Below, in pieces: positions 7,925 to 55,552 of a stretch of 64,000 nucleotides of DNA. How positions within the stretch are numbered: position 1 is the stretch's first letter; the number at the start of each line of letters is the position of its first letter. Location of the stretch: contig CBDCCK010000002.1 of the NCBI GenBank assembly GCA_965214835.1, positions 800,001-864,000 on the forward strand, written 5' to 3'. The DNA is from Nitrosopumilaceae archaeon (GTDB lineage Archaea; Thermoproteota; Nitrososphaeria; Nitrososphaerales; Nitrosopumilaceae). A model generated the notes under the pieces. The model searched no databases. It was not told the origin of the DNA and saw only the letters and a list, made by a program, of their open reading frames with translations. Both the position numbers and the translations under genes were made by a program.

Positions 7925-8389
7925 ATGCAGGAATCCGAGCTCATAGTAAGGCGGATCAGGGAGGGCACCGTAGTTGACCATATTGACGAGGGAAAGGGCC
8001 TGGCGGTGCTCAATGCCCTGAAGATCGACGGCCGGGACGGGGGCCTGATTACCATAGCGCTAAACGTTCCAAGCGGCAAGTTCAACAAAAAGGACATCAT
8101 CAAGGTGGAAAACAGGTTCCTGGTAGACGAGGATACCAGCAAGCTTGCAGTCATTGCGCCAAAGTCCACGGTCAACATCATCAAGGACTACAAGCTGGTC
8201 GAGAAGAGAAGGGTGTCGCTCCCAAGCGAGATAGACAAGATATTCCGGTGCTCAAATCCCGACTGCATTACTAACAGCTCCGAGCACATAGAGTCAATCA
8301 TGGACGTAGTCGACAAGGACAGCCTGATCCTAAGGTGCCGCTATTGCAGCAGGATCCTGGATGTCAACAAGCTAAACTACAACGCATGA
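7925..8389 (+). CDS. pyrI: Aspartate carbamoyltransferase regulatory subunit
   Basis: GTVVDHI, CSNPDCITN, CRYC. Confidence 0.96.
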   Translation: MQESELIVRRIREGTVVDHIDEGKGLAVLNALKIDGRDGGLITIALNVPSGKFNKKDIIKVENRFLVDEDTSKLAVIAPKSTVNIIKDYKLVEKRRVSLPSEIDKIFRCSNPDCITNSSEHIESIMDVVDKDSLILRCRYCSRILDVNKLNYNA

Positions 8390-9241: not shown

Positions 9242-9399
9242 GCAGTCCGGGCCGGATCTTCGATTGTCCTGCAGATCCCCCTCTTAACACGGGGGTCGCC
9301 GCCTTTCCCACGCATCCCAAAAAGGCGCAGAGTCAAGGACGCGGGCATGTCCGGGCAGGGGACGCTTTTTTAAAAAACCGGAAAAGGTTGTCGGCCGGG

Positions 9400-45687: not shown

Positions 45688-46657
45688 TCACGACAGTTCG
45701 GGTATGCCTATGTCGCGAAGATAGGCATATGTCTTATCATAGAATGCGGGAAGCCGTGTATGATCGTTTATGTCTCCATGAGGTAAAAAGATCACCAGTC
45801 CTTGCCTTGCTCGCGTCAGCAAAACCCGATACGCGTTTTTCAGGTATGACATCCTAGCATCCTTTCTGATATGGGTCCATTTTGATCCCCTAAACTCGCG
45901 ATATATCCAGTCCTTGGCAGAGCTATATCTAAGGTTGGCATCCCATGCAACACATGCCCAGTCAAGCTCAAGCCCCTGTACATGAAACTCCGTAGCAGCG
46001 TATTCAAGACTGTACGATGAGCGGTGATCATTACGCTCGTTAAGAAACCATTTTGTGGCATCGACTGTAAGCTCGACGTATATTCCGTGCGGCTGCAGTC
46101 TGTACGATTTTGCGCTTGCCACTATTCCGAACCTCTCGCTTCCACGTGCCTTCTCGCGCAGCCACTGCTTTGCGCGCTCAAAGTCCCGCGTCATTACTAT
46201 CGGATACCGATCCAGCATCCCCAATACATTTCGTGCGTCTTCTGTATTGCAATCCAAAAGCACCTTCACAAATTCTGACACACGCTCGCTACGAAACGAC
46301 CTGATTGATGTGCTCAGATGCAGATCTGGAACAGACGTACACTTTGTGTCGCCTACAAGATCGATCATGTTCTGATTACCTGTGTATTCGGCGTCTGTTA
46401 TCTTTGTGGATATGTAGACGTTCCAGTCCGGGTAGTGGTTGCGAATACTATCAAACCACTCTGTCAGCCCTGCCTCGCCGGTGTTGATCTCCTGGCCTCC
46501 TCCTACTAGGCACACGATCACCGCCCATCCCTCGTGCCTGTCTAGGACACTGATCAGAAACTGGGGTTCGGACATGTTAAAGTTCTTTATTCTCTTCTTG
46601 CTTGCCATAAAACGGGTCGTTTGTTCCTTGTTCCATGCCCGTTGTGCCTCGTCAAAT
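45688..46657 (-). pseudogene. DUF2075 (Schlafen group 3-like) helicase copy 2, C-terminal half
   Basis: FDEAQRAW, VGGGQEINTGE, SIRSFR, QGLELDW, YRVLLTRARQG; no Walker A. Confidence 0.88.
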
Positions 46658-46718
46658 GAGACTGGTAAGTTAGCGGGAGCTGATTTCTTCTGGAAGCATC
46701 GGGAGCTGCTATGGGCAT

Positions 46719-46800
46719 TAGACCTTATGCATAATCGGTTCAGAACTAGGATTATTACGAACAAATTCATCACATTCAGGTCGATTACGCATAAAGCCTA
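46719..46800. mobile_element. About 80-bp inverted-repeat MITE
   Basis: AGACCTTATGCATAATCG … CGATTACGCATAAAGCCT; similar end at about 47777. Confidence 0.5.
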
Positions 46801-46831: not shown

Positions 46832-47091
46832 GGCCATACCGCCCGGAGACCAACAGCAAGCTAGCAAGATTTCACGGTAGTATAGAGGCCAAAATCCACC
46901 ACTATGCGAGTCTGGCTGTATACGTGGAATACTATAACGAGCGCAGGCTACACTTTGCAATGGATATCGACAACTGTGAGACGCCGTTGCAGGCCTTCTC
47001 GGCAGAGGCCACAGAAGCGATCAGAAAAAGCAACCCAAAATGGATGGGGAGGGACATCAATGACTAGCGAACCTAATTTTCATATAACACA
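46832..47091 (+). mobile_element. IS481 3' remnant
   Basis: PETNSKL, YYNERRLH; …CATATAACACA. Confidence 0.8.
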
Positions 47092-47834
47092 ACTCCAAAT
47101 CCCTGTTGGTGAGAAGATCATACTATTCTGGAACCATACAGGAGTTCTTGGCGGCCGACGGAGGCAAGATACTAGACGAGATCCGTGAGAATGACACCTT
47201 CAAGCCAGACAGGAATCAGACTGATGCGTGGAGGGAGCAGATCCTCATACTGAAGGATCAGCTCAGGGATCTTGGGCGTGGCCATGTCATCTTCGAGTAT
47301 ACCATTCCTAGGATGGGCAAGAGGGTAGACACCGTGGTGATCCACTCTGACTTTGTATTTGTCATGGAGTTCAAGGTCAACAAGAAGAGATTCGAAAGGC
47401 AGGACGAGGATCAGTGCACCGACTATGCGCTGGATCTGAAGAACTTCCACGAGGACAGCCATTGCGCCTCGATAGTGCCGATCCTCGTATCCACGGAGGC
47501 AGACAGCCCGGATCATGAGACGCCAGAAAAGTACAACTTCAGGTCCTATTTATACTGACTAGGGAACTTTTTGCCCGGAACTTTTTGATCCTTCCGCATC
47601 CGTTGTGACAGACCCGTTGCATCACGGTTCTGTGTAATCTTGGTGATATGAAATTTCATCGGGATCAGGAATGCCCGACAATCTGACCTTTCAGGTTGTT
47701 CTGTGTAATCTTAGGCACCTGAGGCTGGATCTTCTGATTGAAATGATGATGTTCTGGACACAATGCGTCATAGTCAGACCTTATGTGTAATCGGCACTGA
47801 TCAAAAAAACCAGGCAGCTTTTACGTAATTTTTG

Positions 47835-48120
47835 GAAAACTCCGTCTGTTCCAGGGTCTTGGCAGCCCGGCCCTTGATGGTTGCCACGCACGTCTTTTTA
47901 TGAACGTCTATTCCTATGTTGATCATTATATCACCTCCCTGTTGATCAAAGTGTGTGTGCCCAACTGTGCGGAAAACTCCCATTCGCCCTCGATGTGGCA
48001 TTTCGTTGTCCGCCTACTCTGAGCCAGTCTCTTACGCGCTCTCATATGTGGCAAGTTTACTTCGGCTCTTGGGCCCAACATGGATAGTATGGCATCCGCT
48101 ACAGATAAGATTTGATATAA
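47835..48120 (-). mobile_element. IS110 left non-coding end and transposase stub
   Basis: MINIGIDVHKKTCVATI from 47926, preceded by a GGAGGTGA Shine-Dalgarno. Confidence 0.75.
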
Positions 48121-48437
48121 CGTCTCTTACCAGTTGGGTGTATTTCCGCGACGATAATATCGCGGCCCATTGAAGTTTGGGAGCACCAGTACGGGATTCG
48201 ACTGTAAGATGTTGCTTTCCGCGACGTTGTTGCGATCCCATTCAAGCAAAGGCTTTAGGATTTTCAGGATCTCGTTGGCGGCACTGCCGATCAGGATCTT
48301 CATTACCATGCCTCCTGTGCAGTATCCGCTGGATCGGGTAAACCTTCACCCGGCATCCTCCTCCTGGCACCGTCTGTACCGTCGTGAACCAGGCGCATTT
48401 GGGATGACTGAAAACGAATCATTATAAGATACTTGGT

Positions 48438-49052
48438 ATGAGTATCTTCATGCCGGCCAACAAGCTGAAGAGGATTGTAGGGGATGAATTTTTTTCACAG
48501 TTCGAACATGATTTGGAAAAACTGATTGAATCCGGACCAAAAACGTGGGACATGCTGTTTTCTGTATATGAAGACATGGAACATCACCAGCAGTACAACT
48601 TTTTGTTGAAGAAAAAATGTGCGGCGCATGGAGGATCATACGACGACATAGTGCGGTTGTCTTCACCATTTCGCTATCTCATACGGCTGATGTTGAACGG
48701 AATATTGGAGAAAAACGACATCAGGAATGCCATCCTGGACAGCACAGACCACTCAAATGTAGACGCGTTTTGCGATGAGCTGGCTTCCAAGTTTGATTCA
48801 TGTCGTGATAAACTCAAGGTGGCCAATGCTGTCGGAATGGCATTTAATCATGACATATCCCTGCTGGAAGACATTAGGGTCGATACTGGAGTGAGAAGCG
48901 TAGTGGTGGATTCTAGCACAGTTAAAAAGCCAATAATAACAATAAGCCTGGATGAAGTTGTGTTTAACTGCACCAAGGGAGATGTACACATTTTAATTGA
49001 CATTTTAAAAAACGCATGTAAGGTGATAGAGGATGAGTACGAGAAAAACTAG
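48438..49052 (+). CDS. Hypothetical 204-aa protein, candidate COMMD-like
   Basis: Helical N-terminus; C-terminal strand-strand-strand-helix pattern LEDIRVDTGVRSV…KPIITISL…VVFNCT..DVHILIDIL. Confidence 0.55.
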   Translation: MSIFMPANKLKRIVGDEFFSQFEHDLEKLIESGPKTWDMLFSVYEDMEHHQQYNFLLKKKCAAHGGSYDDIVRLSSPFRYLIRLMLNGILEKNDIRNAILDSTDHSNVDAFCDELASKFDSCRDKLKVANAVGMAFNHDISLLEDIRVDTGVRSVVVDSSTVKKPIITISLDEVVFNCTKGDVHILIDILKNACKVIEDEYEKN

Positions 49053-49404
49053 GCTGAAGAATGCTCACGGCAGGCTGTCGTATGAACCCGGTGGCGGCCT
49101 GATTAAAATCAGGACGAATGAGGAATCACGTGAAATGAGGTTGGAGTTTCCAAACAAGGAGATGTATGTCAAATTTTATGATTTTGCAACAGAAAACTAT
49201 GACAGGTACAGGATATATCAAGATCACCAGGGTTTCAGCTTCCCCAAAAAATCCGCCGCATTCGTCGGCACCAGCATAGCTGCAAGCCTGGGCCTGATTA
49301 TGCTGGTTGCGCACCCGCTAGGTATCATATCCGCATCCGCGTTCATATGCCCGGGGTACATGCATGGAAAGTCAATTTACAACTGGTTTAGAAACCGCAG
49401 ATGA
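49033..49404 (+). CDS. Hypothetical protein with C-terminal TM hairpin
   Basis: Overlaps the upstream gene; hydrophobic C-terminus. Confidence 0.6.
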   Translation: MSTRKTRLKNAHGRLSYEPGGGLIKIRTNEESREMRLEFPNKEMYVKFYDFATENYDRYRIYQDHQGFSFPKKSAAFVGTSIAASLGLIMLVAHPLGIISASAFICPGYMHGKSIYNWFRNRR

Positions 49405-49622
49405 ACCAAAGACAGTTTTTAACCTGTTTTATTGGAACTGTGGGTACAATGGCATTTACCACGTATGCCGTCACATTTGACATGAATGATATGGAGACCG
49501 AAATCACGCTGGAAAAACTGAAGATAACAACGCCGCTGGATCTGGTCCTCCCGTTCATGGTCTTGTGCGCAGGCACGATAGGATGTATAATCCGGAGTGA
49601 TGCTGGGCCGTCGGCCAAGTGA
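49401..49622 (+). CDS. Small 2-TM protein
   Basis: ATGA overlap; two hydrophobic segments. Confidence 0.55.
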   Translation: MNQRQFLTCFIGTVGTMAFTTYAVTFDMNDMETEITLEKLKITTPLDLVLPFMVLCAGTIGCIIRSDAGPSAK

Positions 49623-49636
49623 AATGTATAGTGACG

Positions 49637-49766
49637 GGGGTTGTCGCCTAATTCCATTTATCTGGCTCTACCTGCACATTTTTCTGAATTTCCGCCCTTT
49701 TACACGCCTGATCCATATGGCAACTCAATAGTTTTCAGGAATTCTAATGAATTAGGCGACAACCCC
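49637..49766. mobile_element. MITE family A, copy 2
   Basis: GGGGTTGTCGCCTAATTC…GAATTAGGCGACAACCCC, 130 bp; no TSD. Confidence 0.85.
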
Positions 49767-51381
49767 CATCTGATCATAAGATGCTGCCCAGGAAATGCCT
49801 GCCTGTCAGTATAAAAAGGACCTGAAGTTGTACCCAGAAAAGTATGTCGACTGCGTATATCACACGATCCGCGCAAACAAGGACGAGATACGCGATACCA
49901 TGAGGCGCGTCTCCTCCTCAGACGAGGCCGGATGCCGCGTGACGGCCACAAAGTGGGAGGATTCAATGTACCGCCCTACACCTACGATAACTGAGGCCGC
50001 CACCGCGCTGTGCGGCGGCATCTCGGGCATTGACGACCTGATGCACTCTGATGCAGGCAAGATAAACTTGGACGTTACTGCAGGTGCCATAAGCGGGATA
50101 ATCGAGAAATCAAAACGCAATGGCTCCAAGTCCATCTGCTTTGTAACCGGGGTTCCGGGATCCGGCAAGACGCTTGCGGCGCTGAACCTGGTGTGCGGTG
50201 CCCATCGCGAGAAGGACGGGCGGGCCGTGTTACTGTCCGGAAATCAGACACTGGTGAATGTACTCAAAGAGTCACTCGTACGGGGAGGCGGATGCATAAC
50301 AGAATACGAGGGCAAGGCAGCAGCATCGCTGATACAGCACATACCCAAGTTCAGAAATAACATCAGCCCCGACAAGCCGTCATTGGAGAGGATTATGGTG
50401 TTTGACGAGGCGCAGCGGGCATGGTCTGCCGAGAAGCTTGCAAAATCACAGAAAACCAAGAACCTTGACTATCACGGAATGTCGGATCCGGAGCTGTTGA
50501 TAGGGTCGATGGCCAGGCACAAGGGGTGGGCCGTGATAGTGTGCCTGATAGGGGAGGGCCAGGAGATCTACGACGGTGAGGTCGGTCTATCCGGGTGGCT
50601 GGAGGCCATAAGGAACAGGTACCCCAAATGGAATGTATACCATTCGGCGAGGATCGATGATCCACGCTACGGCAAGGATGTACCGGCCCTGCTTGAGGGA
50701 ACTCGACACGATGCGGTGAAGGGACTGCATCTGGACACGTCAATCAGGTCATTCCGTGCCGAGAGCCTGTCGATGCTCGTATCCAGAATCCTAGATCGCG
50801 ACGCGGAGGGCGCACAGGAGGTCTGGAGAGGCATCAGCGACAGGTATCCCATTGCCATCACGCGCGACATCAACAAGGCAAAAAAGTGGGTAAGGGGGAG
50901 GGCGCGCGGAACCGAAAGGTACGGCATCGTGGCAAGCTCGGAGGGATACCGACTTGGGCCGCATGGGATATTCGTAAAGTCCGACATCAAGCCCGTCCAT
51001 TGGTTCATGGCAGGCAAGGACGATATACGCTCGTCGTATTATATGGAGAAAGTAGCCACCGAGTTTTACATACAGGGGCTGGAGCTTGATTGGGTGTGCC
51101 TTGCATGGGATGCAAACTTGAGGTATATAGACGGGGACTGGCAGGCGCACAGGTTCCGCGGGAGCAGCTGGGGATCCATAAAGACTGAGAAGGCTCGCGA
51201 GTACCTGCTGAACTCGTACCGCGTGCTACTCACCAGGGCCCGTCAGGGGATGGTGATATTCGTCCCGGAGGGAGACGACCACGACGCCACTAGGAACCCG
51301 GAGTTCTACGACGGTACGTACGAGTATCTCAAAGGCATCGGGTTTGAGGAGATATGATCCGAGTCTGGAATTCCTGTTTGG

Positions 51382-51630
51382 GAGGCTGTCGTCTAATTCC
51401 CTTTGCTTGACTCAATCTGCACGTTTTTCTGAATCTCCACGCCCTTTGCACGCCTAATCCAGACGACACCTCATAGTTTTCAGGTAACAGCTCGGACTTT
51501 GGAAGTGACTTGTGATTTTAGGCACGAATTACATCTGCGGAGGCCTCTTTGGTGGTAAAATTCATGCCTGAACTTCCAGAGCCCGACCTGTTACGTTTTC
51601 AGGAATTTTGATGAATTAGGCGACAATCTC
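51382..51630. mobile_element. MITE family A, copy 3, with a family B MITE nested at 51484-51594
   Basis: Outer 9-bp TSD CCTGTTTGG/CCTGTCTGG; inner GTAACAG…CTGTTAC with 8-bp TSD GTTTTCAG. Confidence 0.92.
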
Positions 51631-51971
51631 CCTGTCTGGAGACTGCAGAAAGCCCTCGAGTCTGTTTGCGTTCTTGGAGGTGGAGGCTCCATTTCAGGCA
51701 TCTTGAATACGATGGGCGTATTGAACTTTTTTTGTACACATCTATGAAAGCATCAACATATGAGAAAACACTGAAAATTCAAAAAAATCTTAAGGGCATC
51801 AAGTCCAAAGAATATCATCAAAAAATATGACATGGTTGTTCAGGATCAAGGCGATTCTGTAGGATTATTTTCCCATAGCCTCAAGCCAGAAAATTTGACT
51901 CTTGAAATGGCTTTTCAGATACGAAGATGGGTAGTTAGAACCAAAAGGACAATCATAACAAAAGTTTTGAC

Positions 51972-52163: not shown

Positions 52164-53483
52164 CTATTCGATTGGGGCTATTTTTGAAAGATCTACGTCA
52201 AACCTGTCTGATATCTGCGATGCGATTTTCTTCCTGATTTCTTTATCTGCAGGTCCATATATCAAAAACTTGTCTACATCCCTGCCTGAAATTGGCGAGA
52301 ACGTATCAAAGTCATAAACATCATCACCGACCCTAAACAATATCTCCCCTTTTTTGAACAGCTTGTTCTTTATTGTTGATTTAAAGAAAATCACCTCATG
52401 TGGCTCTAAATTAAGAGAATTGCTTATTTCAAGCGCAATTTCGTTAAAATCACCTGACTTCATTTTCATAAACCTTCCCTCTACATCTGCTGCGTTTTCT
52501 AGATCCTTTGGAGCAAACTCACAGGCACGTTTGAGCAATTTTCTCTTCCTGATGTTGACGAGAATCAGCTTGGATGTTTTTGCATCATCGCTATCAATGA
52601 TTTTGTTGTAGGTTGAATAATCATCAAGGGAGGTGTAAAATTTCAAAAATTCTGGGTTGTCTTTATCTGGGTTGAATTTTAGTAGATTTTCATCAAAAAT
52701 CTTTTCATCGTAAATTGCAATTTCAAGTGCCTTGAGAAACATCTGGTCTGCGGCCAGCCTTGCATGGTGCGTATAGACTTGAACATGCATCAAGTATCGT
52801 GCCAGCCTGTAATTTTCAAGTGCGTCCTTTCCTTTCTTGCTGATGCAAATTCTAGAACCTTTTGGTGTTGAAGTAAGCGTGTGTAAAATTCGGTTAAAGT
52901 CAAACTGCCCATATGCAACACCAATATGGTATGAATCTCGCCTGAGATAGTCTAACTTGTCTGCATCAATACCGCTTGAAATAATGTCTGCCTGAAGTGG
53001 CTTTTCGGATTCTTTGTAGGATTCCTTTTTTTCTAGCAATTCTATGATTTCGTTTTTCTTTTCGCCTAGAATTGAGTCTAATTCTGAGTCTTCTTTAATT
53101 ATGATTCTTGAAATTTTTTCATGGGATTCTGAAATCGTAGGATTAGCCTTCTCTATTACTGCCTCAAACAAGTGAGAGAATGGACCATGGCCAAGATCAT
53201 GCATTAGGCACGAACATCTGATTCTTTCAATATCGTCTCGTTTGGTAAATCCCAGCTCGCGTGCCATTATGTTTGATACATATAATGCCCCTATGGAATG
53301 CTCAAATCTGGTATGTACTGATGACGGATATGCAACATATGCATGGGAAAGCTGTTTGATAAACTGTAATCTTCTAAAGACTTCTGCGTCTATGATTTTG
53401 GTTTCTAGTTCTGAAAGATCAACAAATCCGTAGAGAGGATCTCTGATTGCTTTGGCTCTAAAATAGCTGTTAGGCATAGACAA
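52164..53483 (-). CDS. SAMHD1/YwfO-like HD dNTP hydrolase, accessory low-GC copy
   Basis: RDPLYG, HTRFEHSIG, HDLGHGPFSH, DADKLDYLRRD. Confidence 0.9.
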   Translation of the reverse strand: MSMPNSYFRAKAIRDPLYGFVDLSELETKIIDAEVFRRLQFIKQLSHAYVAYPSSVHTRFEHSIGALYVSNIMARELGFTKRDDIERIRCSCLMHDLGHGPFSHLFEAVIEKANPTISESHEKISRIIIKEDSELDSILGEKKNEIIELLEKKESYKESEKPLQADIISSGIDADKLDYLRRDSYHIGVAYGQFDFNRILHTLTSTPKGSRICISKKGKDALENYRLARYLMHVQVYTHHARLAADQMFLKALEIAIYDEKIFDENLLKFNPDKDNPEFLKFYTSLDDYSTYNKIIDSDDAKTSKLILVNIRKRKLLKRACEFAPKDLENAADVEGRFMKMKSGDFNEIALEISNSLNLEPHEVIFFKSTIKNKLFKKGEILFRVGDDVYDFDTFSPISGRDVDKFLIYGPADKEIRKKIASQISDRFDVDLSKIAPIE

Positions 53484-54021
53484 GGTTCAGATTTTGAAGT
53501 AGTTCGAGTCCAGTCATTGCATCCTCTTGAGAAATATTCCAGTCAAAGTCTTTTGCAATTGTTTTTACGTCTTCTGCTGAAAACTTGTCTTTGAGTCGGG
53601 ATTCTGAATTTATCAAAATGTAGTGGGCCTTTGCTGCATATGATAGCGGTGTTGGCCTTAGTTTGCAGTGTTCTTTGCATACGCGGACGGTTTTAGAAAT
53701 TGTTTCGTATTCTTTTGGGTATTTTCTCATTGCAGTTTCGGCGTATTTGATTCCGTCTTCTGTTAACTTGTAATTGTAGGTTTCATAGTAGCCTGAAATG
53801 ATGTTTTGATCAATGTATGAAAATTCAGACATGTCTTCCAGTGCGACTGATACTTCCCTGCTGAACGGACCATAGAAATAATGAGTATAGCCTGAAATGT
53901 CCAGATTCTTGATCGTAACTGTATGAAAGTAGACCAGTTTCTGAATTGCTGTTCTGCCTGCCATTTTGTCACCATTTGCATGAATAGTCAGTGCAATAGC
54001 GTCAAAAACATCCAATCCCAT
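53470..54021 (-). CDS. YwgA/DUF4065-like protein
   Basis: GRTAIQKLVYF, HYFYGPFSREV, YKLTEDG. Confidence 0.78.
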   Translation of the reverse strand: MGLDVFDAIALTIHANGDKMAGRTAIQKLVYFHTVTIKNLDISGYTHYFYGPFSREVSVALEDMSEFSYIDQNIISGYYETYNYKLTEDGIKYAETAMRKYPKEYETISKTVRVCKEHCKLRPTPLSYAAKAHYILINSESRLKDKFSAEDVKTIAKDFDWNISQEDAMTGLELLQNLNLVYA

Positions 54022-54474: not shown

Positions 54475-54583
54475 CTTGGGTACTCTGGTAAATCTCCGGG
54501 GTTTTTCAGCACGTAAATGACATTGAGGGCATATTCTACTACAGAGCTTGGGTACTCTGGTAAATCTCCGGGGTTTTTCAGCA
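54475..54583. repeat. Two identical 37-bp repeats separated by 35 bp (CRISPR-like dimensions)
   Basis: CTTGGGTACTCTGGTAAATCTCCGGGGTTTTTCAGCA at 54475 and 54547. Confidence 0.9.
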
Positions 54584-55552
54584 GGGTATTAAGTTAGGGG
54601 TTTGTAGCGTTGACTTAGGGAGCTGTATGTGACTCGGCCGTGGACTCGTCCCCAAACAGCCGTTTCTGCCCAGATCCGTCAAGGGTGTTCTGGAGCCCGG
54701 ATTTCCTTCTGTTCTTTTTTGCGACTTTTGCTTTTTAGGATGCTTGGATTTTCTCGCTTGTGGTTTTTTCTCTGTCTTGCCAATGCTGGCATCTGACTTG
54801 CCAAGGTATGACTCGGACTGTTTTCCCCAGGGCATTCGTTCAAGATCTCGGCGCAACCTCATCGTCTCTACAGAGACCGTGTTCACCCTTTGGAGTAGGT
54901 CTATGACGTGCTCCTTATGATCGGCAAATTTGTACGTGTTGAATTCTTCTCGGACGCTAGGATCATCACAGGATTTTCCAGATATGACGTTTTTTGGTTC
55001 TTTGTAAAACTCTAGGATCCATTCCAGTGCGCATTTTGAGTTGAATTTGTATTGCAACGCTTCTTTTGGCACTCCTTCAAGCATCGTATTATCATCAATC
55101 ATTATGGCAAAATTCGTAACAGCTCGGGCTCTGGAAGTGATTTATGATTTTAGGCACAAATTACATCTGCGAAGATCCCTTTGGCGATAAAATTCATGCC
55201 TGAACTTCCAGAGCCCGAGCTGTTACCAAAATTCTGAGAGTTGTCTTCTTCTTTCGGTTTTTTCAGCATGAGTCGGGTTTGATTTTTTGCAGTCTTTTTG
55301 TCTGCTCGCTTCAATGGATACTTTTTGGCACATTCAAAGTTGACATGGAGATCATACAGTTTCCTGCCTATCTTCACCCAATCATCGAAATCCTCAGCTA
55401 GTGGAATTCTTAGGAATCTGCGTTGCAGATCATACTTGTATTTTTCTTAGTATTTGGGATCGCTGAAAATGGCATAGGTGTAATAGAATATGTCCTCGTC
55501 TGCTATCGCTTTGTTCCTGTAGTGTTTTTGAAATAACTCCAAACCAAAGTCA
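54578..55552 (-). pseudogene. Type ISP restriction-modification enzyme, C-terminal remnant
   Basis: EDIFYYTYA…P.Y, LRIPL, GRKL.DLH.NFE, ALEWIL; frameshifted and interrupted by a MITE. Confidence 0.8.
55116..55226. mobile_element. MITE family B
   Basis: Perfect TIR GTAACAGCTCGGGCTCTGGAAGT; 8-bp TSD CAAAATTC. Confidence 0.93.

Follow-up and report, generated by a model that had tools for sequence, protein, structure and literature searches.

Within a 64,000-nucleotide stretch of a Nitrosopumilaceae genome (hereafter, the window), three small, overlapping open reading frames (ORFs) lie among transposon remnants, and a first-pass annotation made from the letters alone proposed that the first encodes an archaeal relative of the eukaryotic COMMD proteins and the other two small membrane proteins. 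The locus raises the questions of what the first protein is, whether the three genes belong together, and how they are related to the inserted element in which they reside. The features of the locus, with positions counted from the first nucleotide of the window, are as follows.

47106-47530, plus strand: N-terminal piece of a candidate defence gene, PDC-S41 / DUF2075 (Schlafen group 3 helicase-like); PADLOC PDC-S41 E 1.2e-46, profile positions 2-140 of 657
47523-47530, no strand: left 8-bp target-site duplication, CCAGAAAA; the same 8-mer immediately borders each inverted repeat on its outer side
47531-47625, plus strand: IS66-family left end, 95 bp including the terminal inverted repeat (TIR) 47531-47559; recurs at 12 other places with 87-96% identity
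47626-47766, no strand: unrelated short repeat in the shell; 91% identical over 141 nt to G000:C2:2989301-2989441
47776-48130, minus strand: IS110-family 5′ fragment (end sequence and first transposase codons); 47832-48130 recurs at 8 other places with 87-98% identity
48421-48428, plus strand: TATA-like box, ATTATAAG, about 22 nt upstream of the ATG at 48450; from sequence
48438-49052, plus strand: ORF1, 204 aa, or 200 aa from the ATG at 48450; predicted COMMD-like, with a helical HN domain at about residues 9-136 and a COMM-type domain at 146-203 in the AlphaFold2 model
49033-49404, plus strand: ORF2, 123 aa, basic; cytoplasmic N-terminal part and C-terminal hydrophobic hairpin (74-107), as predicted
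49401-49622, plus strand: ORF3, 73 aa, two hydrophobic segments; start overlaps the ORF2 stop (ATGA)
49634-49767, no strand: MITE, 133 bp with 22-nt terminal inverted repeats; more than 30 genome copies at 85-93% identity
49768-49833, plus strand: IS66-family right end, 66 bp including TIR 49805-49833; recurs at 16 other places with 87-100% identity
49834-49841, no strand: right 8-bp target-site duplication, CCAGAAAA, matching the left copy
49842-51357, plus strand: C-terminal piece of the PDC-S41 / DUF2075 gene; PADLOC PDC-S41 E 9e-188, profile positions 139-653 of 657; Pfam SLFN-g3_helicase E 1.6e-71

Results

The cassette is a passenger of a transposase-less IS66-family shell

The two 29-nt TIRs that bound the element (47531-47559 and 49805-49833) are 97% complementary, and removal of the element in silico, together with one of the duplicated 8-mers, restores a 646-codon ORF for PDC-S41. 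Judged from the sequence, the insertion left the 8-bp duplication and inactivated the PDC-S41 candidate defence gene. The description of the ORFs as lying amid debris within a TIR element is borne out, as an IS110 5′ fragment, a second repeat, and the 133-bp MITE surround them. A copy of the IS110 fragment at another locus (L002) continues into an ORF of 389 aa in which DEDD_Tnp_IS110 (E 1.8e-25) and Transposase_20 domains are recognised. Full-length IS66-family copies in the genome are about 2.05 kb long and encode a protein of 520-526 aa with the Pfam domain DDE_Tnp_IS66 (E 8.3e-17), and no such transposase ORF was found within the shell by ORF list and Pfam. The element thus shows the features of a non-autonomous IS66 derivative: TIRs as in the autonomous copies, a target duplication, and no internal transposase.

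Mobile insertion cassettes (MICs) are non-autonomous insertion-sequence derivatives that carry passenger genes. The element in the window resembles them in that its TIRs match those of autonomous IS66 copies, it is flanked by an 8-bp duplication, and it holds unrelated passengers and no transposase. Unlike MICs, its loaded shell is single copy, its interior is pieced together from IS110 fragment, repeat, cassette, and MITE, and it could have been assembled on site instead of having transposed whole. Transposition of the loaded element would be marked by more than one copy or by an empty site in relatives; the 1.5-kb interior is single copy in the genome, and four sequencing runs yielded no contig across an empty site. 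Contigs from three other studies cover the cassette only in short fragments, whose sequence is that of the window. The operon had at first been called mobile: the IS66-type TIR shell and the 8-bp target duplication uphold this, whereas movement as a unit has no direct support, with one copy in the genome. The cassette is a passenger of a transposase-less IS66-family shell, similar to a MIC, and this shell either landed as a unit in the PDC-S41 gene or had its interior replaced after landing.

Three coupled genes whose order recurs in a second genus

The cassette consists of three plus-strand ORFs with overlaps of 20 nt (ORF1/ORF2) and 4 nt (ORF2/ORF3) in the ORF list, and all three (204, 123, and 73 aa) are intact and placed as first reported. 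The database gene call for ORF1 starts at the second ATG, 48450, and gives 200 aa. The TATA-like ATTATAAG is a putative promoter element, and its position makes 48450 a likelier start for ORF1 than 48438.

We compared the gene order at three loci: the window, a second Nitrosopumilaceae genus (G044), and a genome from the same genus as the window (G080). The order ORF1-ORF2-ORF3 recurs in G044, where the ORFs (185, 129, and 76 aa) are all intact and ordered and spaced as in the window, with 25% identity for ORF1. G080 retains the end of ORF1 together with ORF2 and ORF3 in decayed form, at 77% identity; this copy is frameshifted and truncated, and the module can therefore be lost. The three genes do co-occur elsewhere, in one intact and one decayed copy, contrary to what had been named as grounds for abandoning the operon. 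All three loci lie within insertion-sequence DNA. The G044 cassette lies between the arms of a perfect inverted repeat of 16 nt. This repeat was considered as the cassette ends, but this was rejected, since the motif occurs 47, 32, and 15 times in G044, the window genome (G000), and G080, respectively, against 0-1 times for a reversed control. It also adjoins a DDE_3 (IS630-type) ORF, and this together with its recurrence indicates that it marks the ends of flanking insertion sequences, outside the module.

Pairwise similarity between the window genome and G044 is weak for ORF2 and ORF3 (E 0.057 and 0.017), ORF3 having a positional counterpart there. Relatives of ORF2 are P0013, P0015 (E 1.8e-29), and P0016 (E 9.4e-27), and ORF3 is 73% identical to its relative P0018. 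The dN/dS ratio is 0.42 in frame against 0.75-0.77 out of frame for ORF2, and 0.24 against 0.56-0.68 for ORF3. Both genes are under purifying selection.

These results bear on whether the cassette is simply inert cargo, the leftover of an earlier element that is decaying among insertion sequences and has no function in the window genome. The fragments of IS66, IS110, and MITE around it, the truncated and frameshifted copy within the same genus, its absence from 399 of 401 family genomes, and its GC content of 46%, compared with a genome mean of 52.6%, would all fit such a leftover. Against this, three frames have stayed intact in both the window and G044 despite the low identity of ORF1, the start/stop overlaps are kept, and dN/dS lies below 0.5 in the annotated frames even when measured against the pseudogene copy. 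We therefore regard inert cargo as unlikely, and the three genes as quite probably a real co-functional operon.

The module is accessory and rare. ORF1 has six relatives of 184-199 aa, with 22-31% identity and 13 invariant columns; five of the six are metagenomic, their longest contigs measuring 4,962, 4,646, 3,512, 1,049,427, and 1,522 bp. An intact homologue occurs in 2 of 401 genomes of the family; the order-level sample has one in 1 of 401 genomes, namely the window's own, and the relatives of G044 have one in 1 of 61. A word-indexed protein search with ORF1 returned no protein beyond ORF1 itself, scans of genome, metagenome, and viral contigs with ORF1 or family alignments found no relative, and plasmids and phages gave no match by tblastn. 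Three large proteins, P0005 (2221 aa), P0008 (858 aa), and P0010 (1019 aa), were set aside as relatives for having short local matches only, as were loci in G023 and G031 and a second G044 locus, where the matches were weak and short (E 0.003-0.008).

ORF1 is predicted to have a COMMD-like fold

The AlphaFold2 model of ORF1, built from a 7-sequence alignment, has a pLDDT of 87 and a pTM of 0.73, with helices in residues 9-136, strands at 146-157, 160-171, and 174-178, and a final helix at 180-203. The helical N-terminal part followed by three strands and a helix, which had been picked out by eye, is thus reproduced in the model. In a Foldseek search of the PDB, the best 11 matches shown for the model are all COMMD or COMMD-like chains, with E-values of 3.6e-4 for 8f2r_G and 3.2e-3 for the bacterial octamer 9q6a_B. 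Whole-chain TM-scores against these matches are low (0.28-0.40, rmsd 8-17 Å) because the relative orientation of the domains differs. A VIA-align scan of 48,161 representative chains likewise placed COMMD or COMMD-like chains in its top seven rows (8f2r_D, Z 10.1; 8p0w_E, Z 9.2; 9q6a_A, Z 7.8), the next fold being Cpn0803 (Z 5.1). Each domain also matches separately: the COMM domain alone aligns with 6bp6_A (Z 6.6, rmsd 2.7, 67 of 78 residues) and 8esd_F (Z 6.6, VIA-align), and the HN domain alone with 4oe9_B, the HN domain of COMMD9 (Z 6.3, rmsd 3.9, 111 of 116 residues), and with 9zn0_A (Z 5.5), where per-domain values of 6.3-6.6 fall in the middling range by the tool's own note. The model therefore combines an HN domain of COMMD topology, a three-stranded antiparallel sheet with an extended helix, and a ranking in which COMMD chains come before other folds. 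On the basis of this predicted structure, ORF1 very probably has a COMMD-like fold, and the fold call made from the letters alone holds in both structural searches.

Sequence profiles do not make this connection. With Pfam at E up to 1, none of the seven ORF1 family members matched PF07258, nor did six-frame translations of the window genome and G044 at E up to 10, and a PDB profile search at E up to 10 returned no COMMD chain. ORF1 itself had no match in Pfam, PADLOC, or PHROGs, and none was found among the BFVD viral structures at E up to 0.001. As there is no significant match to PF07258, the eukaryotic COMMD family, ORF1 is not filed under it. A language-model search of the ESM Atlas placed ORF1 nearest to clusters of bacterial hypothetical proteins in which 23-47% of members carry PF07258, with a score of 0.86 and 189-190 of 256 features in common.

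It could be argued that the COMMD likeness arose by convergence, or results from an alignment of too few sequences, and that ORF1 is instead an unrelated protein, similar to Pur-alpha/PC4/Whirly or to CT584/Cpn0803, perhaps a nucleic-acid-binding accessory of insertion sequences. No sequence method ties ORF1 to COMM, all three loci are in insertion-sequence DNA, and the C-terminal domain does resemble other folds: residues 139-201 can be superposed on Pur-alpha repeats (Z 4.7-4.9, rmsd 1.8-2.1 across 50-51 residues), PC4 reaches Z 4.5-4.7, and Cpn0803/CT584 of Chlamydiales (3q9d, 4mlk) shares with ORF1 a helical N-terminal part and a small sheet-and-helix C-terminal part at the Z of 5.1 given above. 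All of these scores are below those for COMMD chains, which rank first in both searches and alone cover both domains in the right order, and the language-model neighbours, which are independent of the structure model, are COMM_domain clusters. Furthermore, Pur-alpha has four strands and basic surfaces, whereas the domain of ORF1 is three-stranded and carries a net negative charge in 6 of the 7 family members, which sets it apart from basic nucleic-acid binders. The ORF1 relatives as a whole are acidic or neutral (pI 4.8-6.9). An unrelated origin for ORF1 therefore seems improbable.

A second possibility is that ORF1 is a eukaryote-like mimic of host COMMDs, produced by a host-associated archaeon and directed at endosomal trafficking in the host. 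The G044 homologue is recorded from a sponge-associated 'Cenarchaeum symbiont', and human COMMD chains give the top Z-scores (10.1 and 9.2, compared with 7.8 for the bacterial protein). Set against these points, identity to the human chains is 10-16%, the nearest language-model clusters are bacterial rather than eukaryotic, a signal-like hydrophobic segment at the N terminus was seen by hydropathy in none of the seven family members, and the coupling to the archaeon's own two membrane proteins points to an intracellular job. We consider a host-directed role very improbable.

ORF2 and ORF3 are candidate membrane proteins

By hydropathy, ORF2 has one 34-residue hydrophobic stretch (74-107), present in 4 of 4 family members, and ORF3 a clear C-terminal hydrophobic segment (40-66) with a weaker N-terminal one. 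The transmembrane hairpins first assigned to both proteins are thus plausible, on the basis of hydropathy only. The relatives of ORF2 are basic (pI 9.1-9.9). Structure prediction for ORF2 gave a pLDDT of 50 and a model that is not interpretable, an ESM Atlas search with it gave no usable match, and a prediction of a complex of two ORF1 copies with ORF2, run without controls, scored 0.01, a value that speaks neither for nor against binding.

Small membrane proteins act as effectors in several known defence systems, and the cassette had been proposed as a possible membrane-acting defence module. Under this proposal, it would serve in anti-virus defence or abortive infection, with the COMMD-like ring sensing or scaffolding and the membrane proteins damaging the membrane. 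Like many defence cassettes, it is a small and rare unit of patchy occurrence (2 of 401 genomes in the family) that insertion-sequence DNA carries, and PADLOC places candidate defence genes nearby: two PDC-S41 copies, a dGTPase-like HD protein, and a DarG/LmuC-like protein. However, this adjacency stems from a transposon landing that destroyed one of these genes, so that the element disrupts a candidate defence gene instead of adding to one. No PADLOC-DB 2.0 family matched ORF1, ORF2, or ORF3 at E up to 0.1, and PHROGs gave no match for 12 of 13 proteins, including these three, the other (P0006) having one weak match (E 0.0062). No sensor or enzymatic domain was detected, and the G044 and G080 copies have no recognisable defence genes among the flanking ORFs listed. 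The defence proposal is accordingly not sustained, and we consider such a role unlikely.

Discussion

[quoted passage not shown] The first-pass annotation had raised the possibility that the module is of an undescribed kind. This does not stand, as COMMD-like proteins from both archaea and bacteria have been published (Liu et al., Nat Commun 2026, PMC13392464; Asgard homologues, PMC12962969). The examples in PMC13392464 include MBK5214510 of a Flavobacteriaceae bacterium (PDB 9q6a/9q6c) and the Sorangium proteins S4XVP2 and S4Y171, and its catalogue, with 111 COMMD-like genes from archaea, has three Bathyarchaeota entries and one 'Nitrososphaerales archaeon' entry; the kind is therefore not new. 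The Nitrososphaerales entry, A0A7J2YAG3, could be a member of the ORF1 subfamily or of another. Among the papers listed, our literature search found none joining COMMD with Thaumarchaeota, Nitrososphaerota, Nitrosopumilus, or Thermoproteota, and the main text of PMC13392464 makes no mention of Thaumarchaeota/Nitroso- taxa, Thermoproteota, transposons, or mobile elements, although its supplementary files may include tables on genomic context that have a bearing on novelty.

ORF1 shares with the proteins described in PMC13392464 a length of about 200 residues, a helical HN domain and then a COMM domain built from three strands and one long helix, and the lack of detectable sequence similarity to eukaryotic COMMDs, and it aligns with 9q6a over 178-179 residues (Z 7.8). 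It differs from the proteins as portrayed there in being coupled to two small membrane-protein genes, in an order kept in a second genus and within insertion-sequence DNA; that study reports one or two COMMD-like genes per genome and, for Myxococcota, Chlamydia, and Haloarcula, no predicted partner among neighbours. Its discussion separates Pur-alpha/Whirly and CT584, which forms hexamers via its HN-like domain, from COMMD-like proteins on the grounds that are used here. The best overall structural matches to ORF1 are eukaryotic COMMD1-10 of Commander/CCC (8f2r, 8f2u, 8p0w, 8esd, 6bp6, 4oe9), from which it differs in its identity of 6-16%, the absence of a PF07258 match, and its occurrence as a single gene rather than ten paralogues.

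In PMC13392464, octameric and decameric rings are established by experiment for prokaryotic COMMD-like proteins, whereas ORF1 is known from its sequence and a predicted monomer. By analogy with the solved bacterial homologues, the COMM domains of ORF1 would pair into dimers and these into rings of 8 or 10 subunits. The basic ORF2, anchored by its hairpin, might then keep the acidic ring on the cytoplasmic side of the membrane, with ORF3 pairing with ORF2 in the bilayer, and our best guess is that a ring tethered in this manner would act as a membrane-associated scaffold or sorting platform, not as an enzyme or effector. That ORF1 forms a membrane-tethered ring is a possibility that we rate somewhat below even, and we offer the reading of ORF2 and ORF3 as the dedicated membrane anchors of a COMMD-like ring more tentatively still, as rather doubtful.

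What is new at this locus is the recurrence of the gene order in a second genus, with a further, decayed copy within the window's genus, the selection on ORF2 and ORF3, and the IS66-shell context that splits the PDC-S41 gene, and the finding thereby extends an already published COMMD-like family by a divergent subfamily and by a setting within a mobile element. If ORF2 and ORF3 do act as anchors, they would be the first partner set for any prokaryotic COMMD-like protein, the docking of COMMD rings to membranes would predate eukaryotes, and the three genes would offer a portable module with which to study it. Assembly of the three proteins into a ring complex on the membrane would link prokaryotic COMMD-like proteins to the membrane role of the eukaryotic Commander.

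A three-gene cassette encoding a probable COMMD-like protein

The cassette consists of three intact, overlapping genes, which the ORF listing places at exactly the coordinates proposed in the first-pass annotation, with overlaps of 20 nt between ORF1 and ORF2 and 4 nt between ORF2 and ORF3:

48438-49052, + strand: ORF1, 204 aa
49033-49404, + strand: ORF2, 123 aa
49401-49622, + strand: ORF3, 73 aa

The database gene call for ORF1 begins at the second ATG, at 48450 (200 aa), and because a TATA-like ATTATAAG lies ~22 nt upstream of this codon, we infer that 48450 is the real start.

ORF1 belongs to no family in Pfam, PADLOC, or PHROGs, and none of the PDB chains retrieved by profile search at E up to 10 is a COMMD. 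Searched exhaustively at E up to 0.001, the representative proteins yielded 10 entries. One is ORF1, six are relatives 184-199 aa in length (22-31% identity), and the other three, long proteins matching over short stretches, were left out. The resulting seven-sequence alignment has 13 invariant columns. The relatives lack hydrophobic segments by hydropathy, and their pI values (4.8-6.9) run from acidic to nearly neutral. Pfam PF07258 matched none of the seven members at E up to 1, nor anything at E up to 10 in six-frame translations of the window's own genome or of G044, a Nitrosopumilaceae genome from a second genus.

The AlphaFold2 model of ORF1 from the seven-sequence alignment (pLDDT 87, pTM 0.73) places helices within residues 9-136, strands at 146-157, 160-171, and 174-178, and a helix at 180-203. 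The best 11 of the Foldseek matches listed from the PDB are all COMMD or COMMD-like chains, two of them at E 0.001 or better. They come from the human CCC complex, a COMMD tetramer, and a COMMD ring, among others, and also from a Flavobacteriaceae bacterium whose COMMD-like protein is octameric (9q6a, 9q6c).

VIA-align comparison of the ORF1 model with chains from the Foldseek list (per-domain Z values lie in the middling range of the tool's scale, and the ORF1 alignment is thin)
8f2r_D, human COMMD chain, whole: Z 10.1, rmsd 13.5 A, 183 residues aligned
9q6a_B, bacterial COMMD-like protein, whole: Z 7.8, rmsd 9.3 A, 178 residues aligned
6bp6_A, COMMD9 COMM (C-terminal) domain: Z 6.6, rmsd 2.7 A, 67 residues aligned
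4oe9_B, COMMD9 HN (N-terminal helical) domain: Z 6.3, rmsd 3.9 A, 111 residues aligned

Whole-chain TM-scores of the model were low, at 0.28-0.40. In a VIA scan of 48,161 representative chains, independent of Foldseek, the top seven rows were again COMMD or COMMD-like chains, followed by Cpn0803 (Z 5.1) and Pur-alpha (4.8). The likeness might instead reflect convergence on a fold such as that of Pur-alpha/PC4 or the CT584-like proteins, but these score below the COMMD chains and have the wrong strand number, and the ORF1 domain is acidic. A protein language-model search, independent of the AlphaFold2 model, placed ORF1 nearest to clusters of bacterial hypothetical proteins, 23-47% with PF07258, at a score of 0.86 that the tool itself rates as a lead only. 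These bacterial neighbors, together with the lack of an evident export signal, argue against a eukaryote-like protein directed at a host. All these results together, the low TM-scores included, make it very probable that ORF1 has a COMMD-like fold, as had been proposed from its sequence pattern.

Proteins of this kind are already known, including from this phylum. PMC13392464 (Nat Commun 2026) describes prokaryotic COMMD-like proteins with <20% identity to eukaryotic COMMDs and homo-octameric and decameric rings determined by crystallography and cryo-EM; it assigns them no function and reports that neighboring gene products in Myxococcota, Chlamydia or Haloarcula were not predicted to form a complex with the COMMD-like protein; PMC12962969 (Nat Microbiol 2026) describes Asgard COMMD homologues and homomultimer models. 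Neither the kind nor its occurrence in the phylum is new, because nine taxids resolved from the supplement of PMC13392464 include 'Nitrososphaerales archaeon' (A0A7J2YAG3) and Bathyarchaeota (three entries). The module had been put forward as possibly undescribed, a suggestion overtaken by both papers as far as the fold in prokaryotes is concerned.

Conservation of gene order

Among 201 Nitrosopumilaceae genomes searched in six frames, relatives of ORF1 occur in G044 (E 6.1e-19; protein source name 'Cenarchaeum symbiont') and in G080, a genome from the window's own genus (35 residues, E 2.5e-8); three more weak matches were left out. A search with the family profile detected intact homologues of ORF1 in only 2 of 401 genomes of the family and 1 of 401 of the order. 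The G044 cassette comprises ORFs of 185, 129, and 76 aa in the same order as in the window, the first pair 3 nt apart and the second overlapping by 11 nt. Its ORF1 is 25% identical to that of the window over 163 residues (E 5e-23), and its ORF2 and ORF3 counterparts have weak pairwise similarity (E 0.057 and 0.017) but are like the window ORFs in length and hydrophobic layout and have several invariant positions in common with them. By profile search, two more relatives were recovered for ORF2 (E 1.8e-29 and 9.4e-27) and, for ORF3, one at 73% identity. The ORF2 relatives are basic (pI 9.1-9.9), with one hydrophobic stretch of 30-odd residues near the C-terminus. The G080 copy is 77% identical over 665 nt, with frame-breaking gaps and an ORF1 cut off beside an IS110-type end. 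The three gene families are small but real, and the gene order is the same at two intact loci and one decayed locus, so that the proposed set does recur elsewhere, intact in G044 and decayed in G080.

dN/dS against the G080 copy (small samples; values without significance test)
ORF2: in frame 0.42; two shifted frames 0.75-0.77
ORF3: in frame 0.24; two shifted frames 0.56-0.68

ORF2 and ORF3 are under coding constraint. The decay of the G080 copy would suit inert cargo on its way to loss; against this stand reading frames that are intact in two genera and dN/dS values <0.5.

The G044 cassette is bracketed by a 16-nt motif in perfect inverted repeat (8109-8124 and 9333-9348 of its locus, L019). 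At ≤2 mismatches the motif occurs 47 times in G044, 32 in the window's genome, and 15 in G080 (reversed control, 0-1), often paired ~1.4 kb apart, in these three genomes of two genera, and it probably marks the ends of an IS630-type element common to the family.

The IS66-family shell and the interrupted PDC-S41 gene

The cassette resides in an IS66-family shell that interrupts PDC-S41, a candidate defence gene (Pfam SLFN-g3_helicase, DUF2075) found by PADLOC in two pieces:

47106-47558: N-terminal piece, profile positions 2-140 of 657
47531-49833: IS66-family shell, 2,303 bp, with 29-nt terminal inverted repeats, between the pieces
49795-51357: C-terminal piece, profile positions 139-653 of 657

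The IS66 family generates an 8-bp target duplication, and identical 8-mers, CCAGAAAA, lie on both sides of the shell. The inactivation looks recent and in principle reversible, because removal of the shell and one 8-mer yields a single 646-codon PDC-S41 frame. Elsewhere in the genome, the first 95 bp of the shell occur at 12 sites and its last 66 bp at 16; full copies are ~2.05 kb and encode a 520-526 aa protein (Pfam DDE_Tnp_IS66, E 8.3e-17). The window copy lacks a transposase and has an interior pieced together from a short repeat, an IS110-family 5' end, a 1.5-kb stretch that is single-copy in the genome and contains all three ORFs, and a 133-bp MITE. The first-pass description of an inverted-repeat element filled with debris was thus correct, and the element is an IS66-family shell with passenger genes.

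The genome (3.2 Mb; others of the family are mostly 0.8-2.3 Mb) is rich in insertion sequences, with a dozen or more 2.05-kb IS66-family copies, each with one transposase gene (520-526 aa), some broken (for example locus L021, contig G000:C2, 1877775-1879825), and at least eight IS110-family copies. The MITE (49634-49767, 133 bp, 22-nt terminal inverted repeats) has >30 genome copies at 85-93% identity, and a related copy lies at 51381-51631. Other features of the surroundings are as follows:

45688-46773, - strand: second PDC-S41 copy, N-terminally truncated (profile positions 316-653, E 6e-148), 3 kb upstream and inverted, with stretches 74-79% complementary to the interrupted copy
46900-47100, between the PDC-S41 copies: repeat DNA and an integrase-like ORF fragment
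51475-51594 and 51963-82: two direct repeats 488 bp apart, just 3' of the PDC-S41 gene (56 nt at 77% identity, 39 nt at 97%)
52164-53483, - strand: HD-domain protein (HD, HD_assoc_2; PADLOC dGTPase E 1e-10)
53470-54021, - strand: 183-aa protein whose matches, DarG-like at E 2.4e-8 and LmuC-like at E 0.0014, are weak
54578-55102, - strand: 174-aa ORF, probably a gene fragment, matching a Type ISP restriction-enzyme C-terminal specificity domain over the last 60 positions of that domain only (E 6e-6)

The HD-domain and 183-aa genes overlap, lie where GC content is low (38%), and may form a further defence pair. The rarity and mobility of the cassette would fit a defence or abortive-infection module, but PADLOC has no model matching it and its defence-gene surroundings are an accident of insertion, so the defence role first suggested finds no backing here.

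A candidate membrane scaffold

By analogy with its solved relatives, ORF1 would form COMM-mediated rings, which the basic N-terminal part and hairpin of ORF2 could anchor at the cytoplasmic face of the membrane, with ORF3 pairing with ORF2 within the bilayer. The module would then serve as an accessory scaffold at the membrane, self-contained and spreading along with insertion sequences. What is new, and sets ORF1 apart from the published COMMD-like proteins, is a divergent candidate subfamily whose gene is followed in constant order by those for two small membrane proteins, all carried on insertion-sequence DNA. With ORF2 and ORF3, a prokaryotic COMMD-like protein for the first time has candidate partners open to testing.
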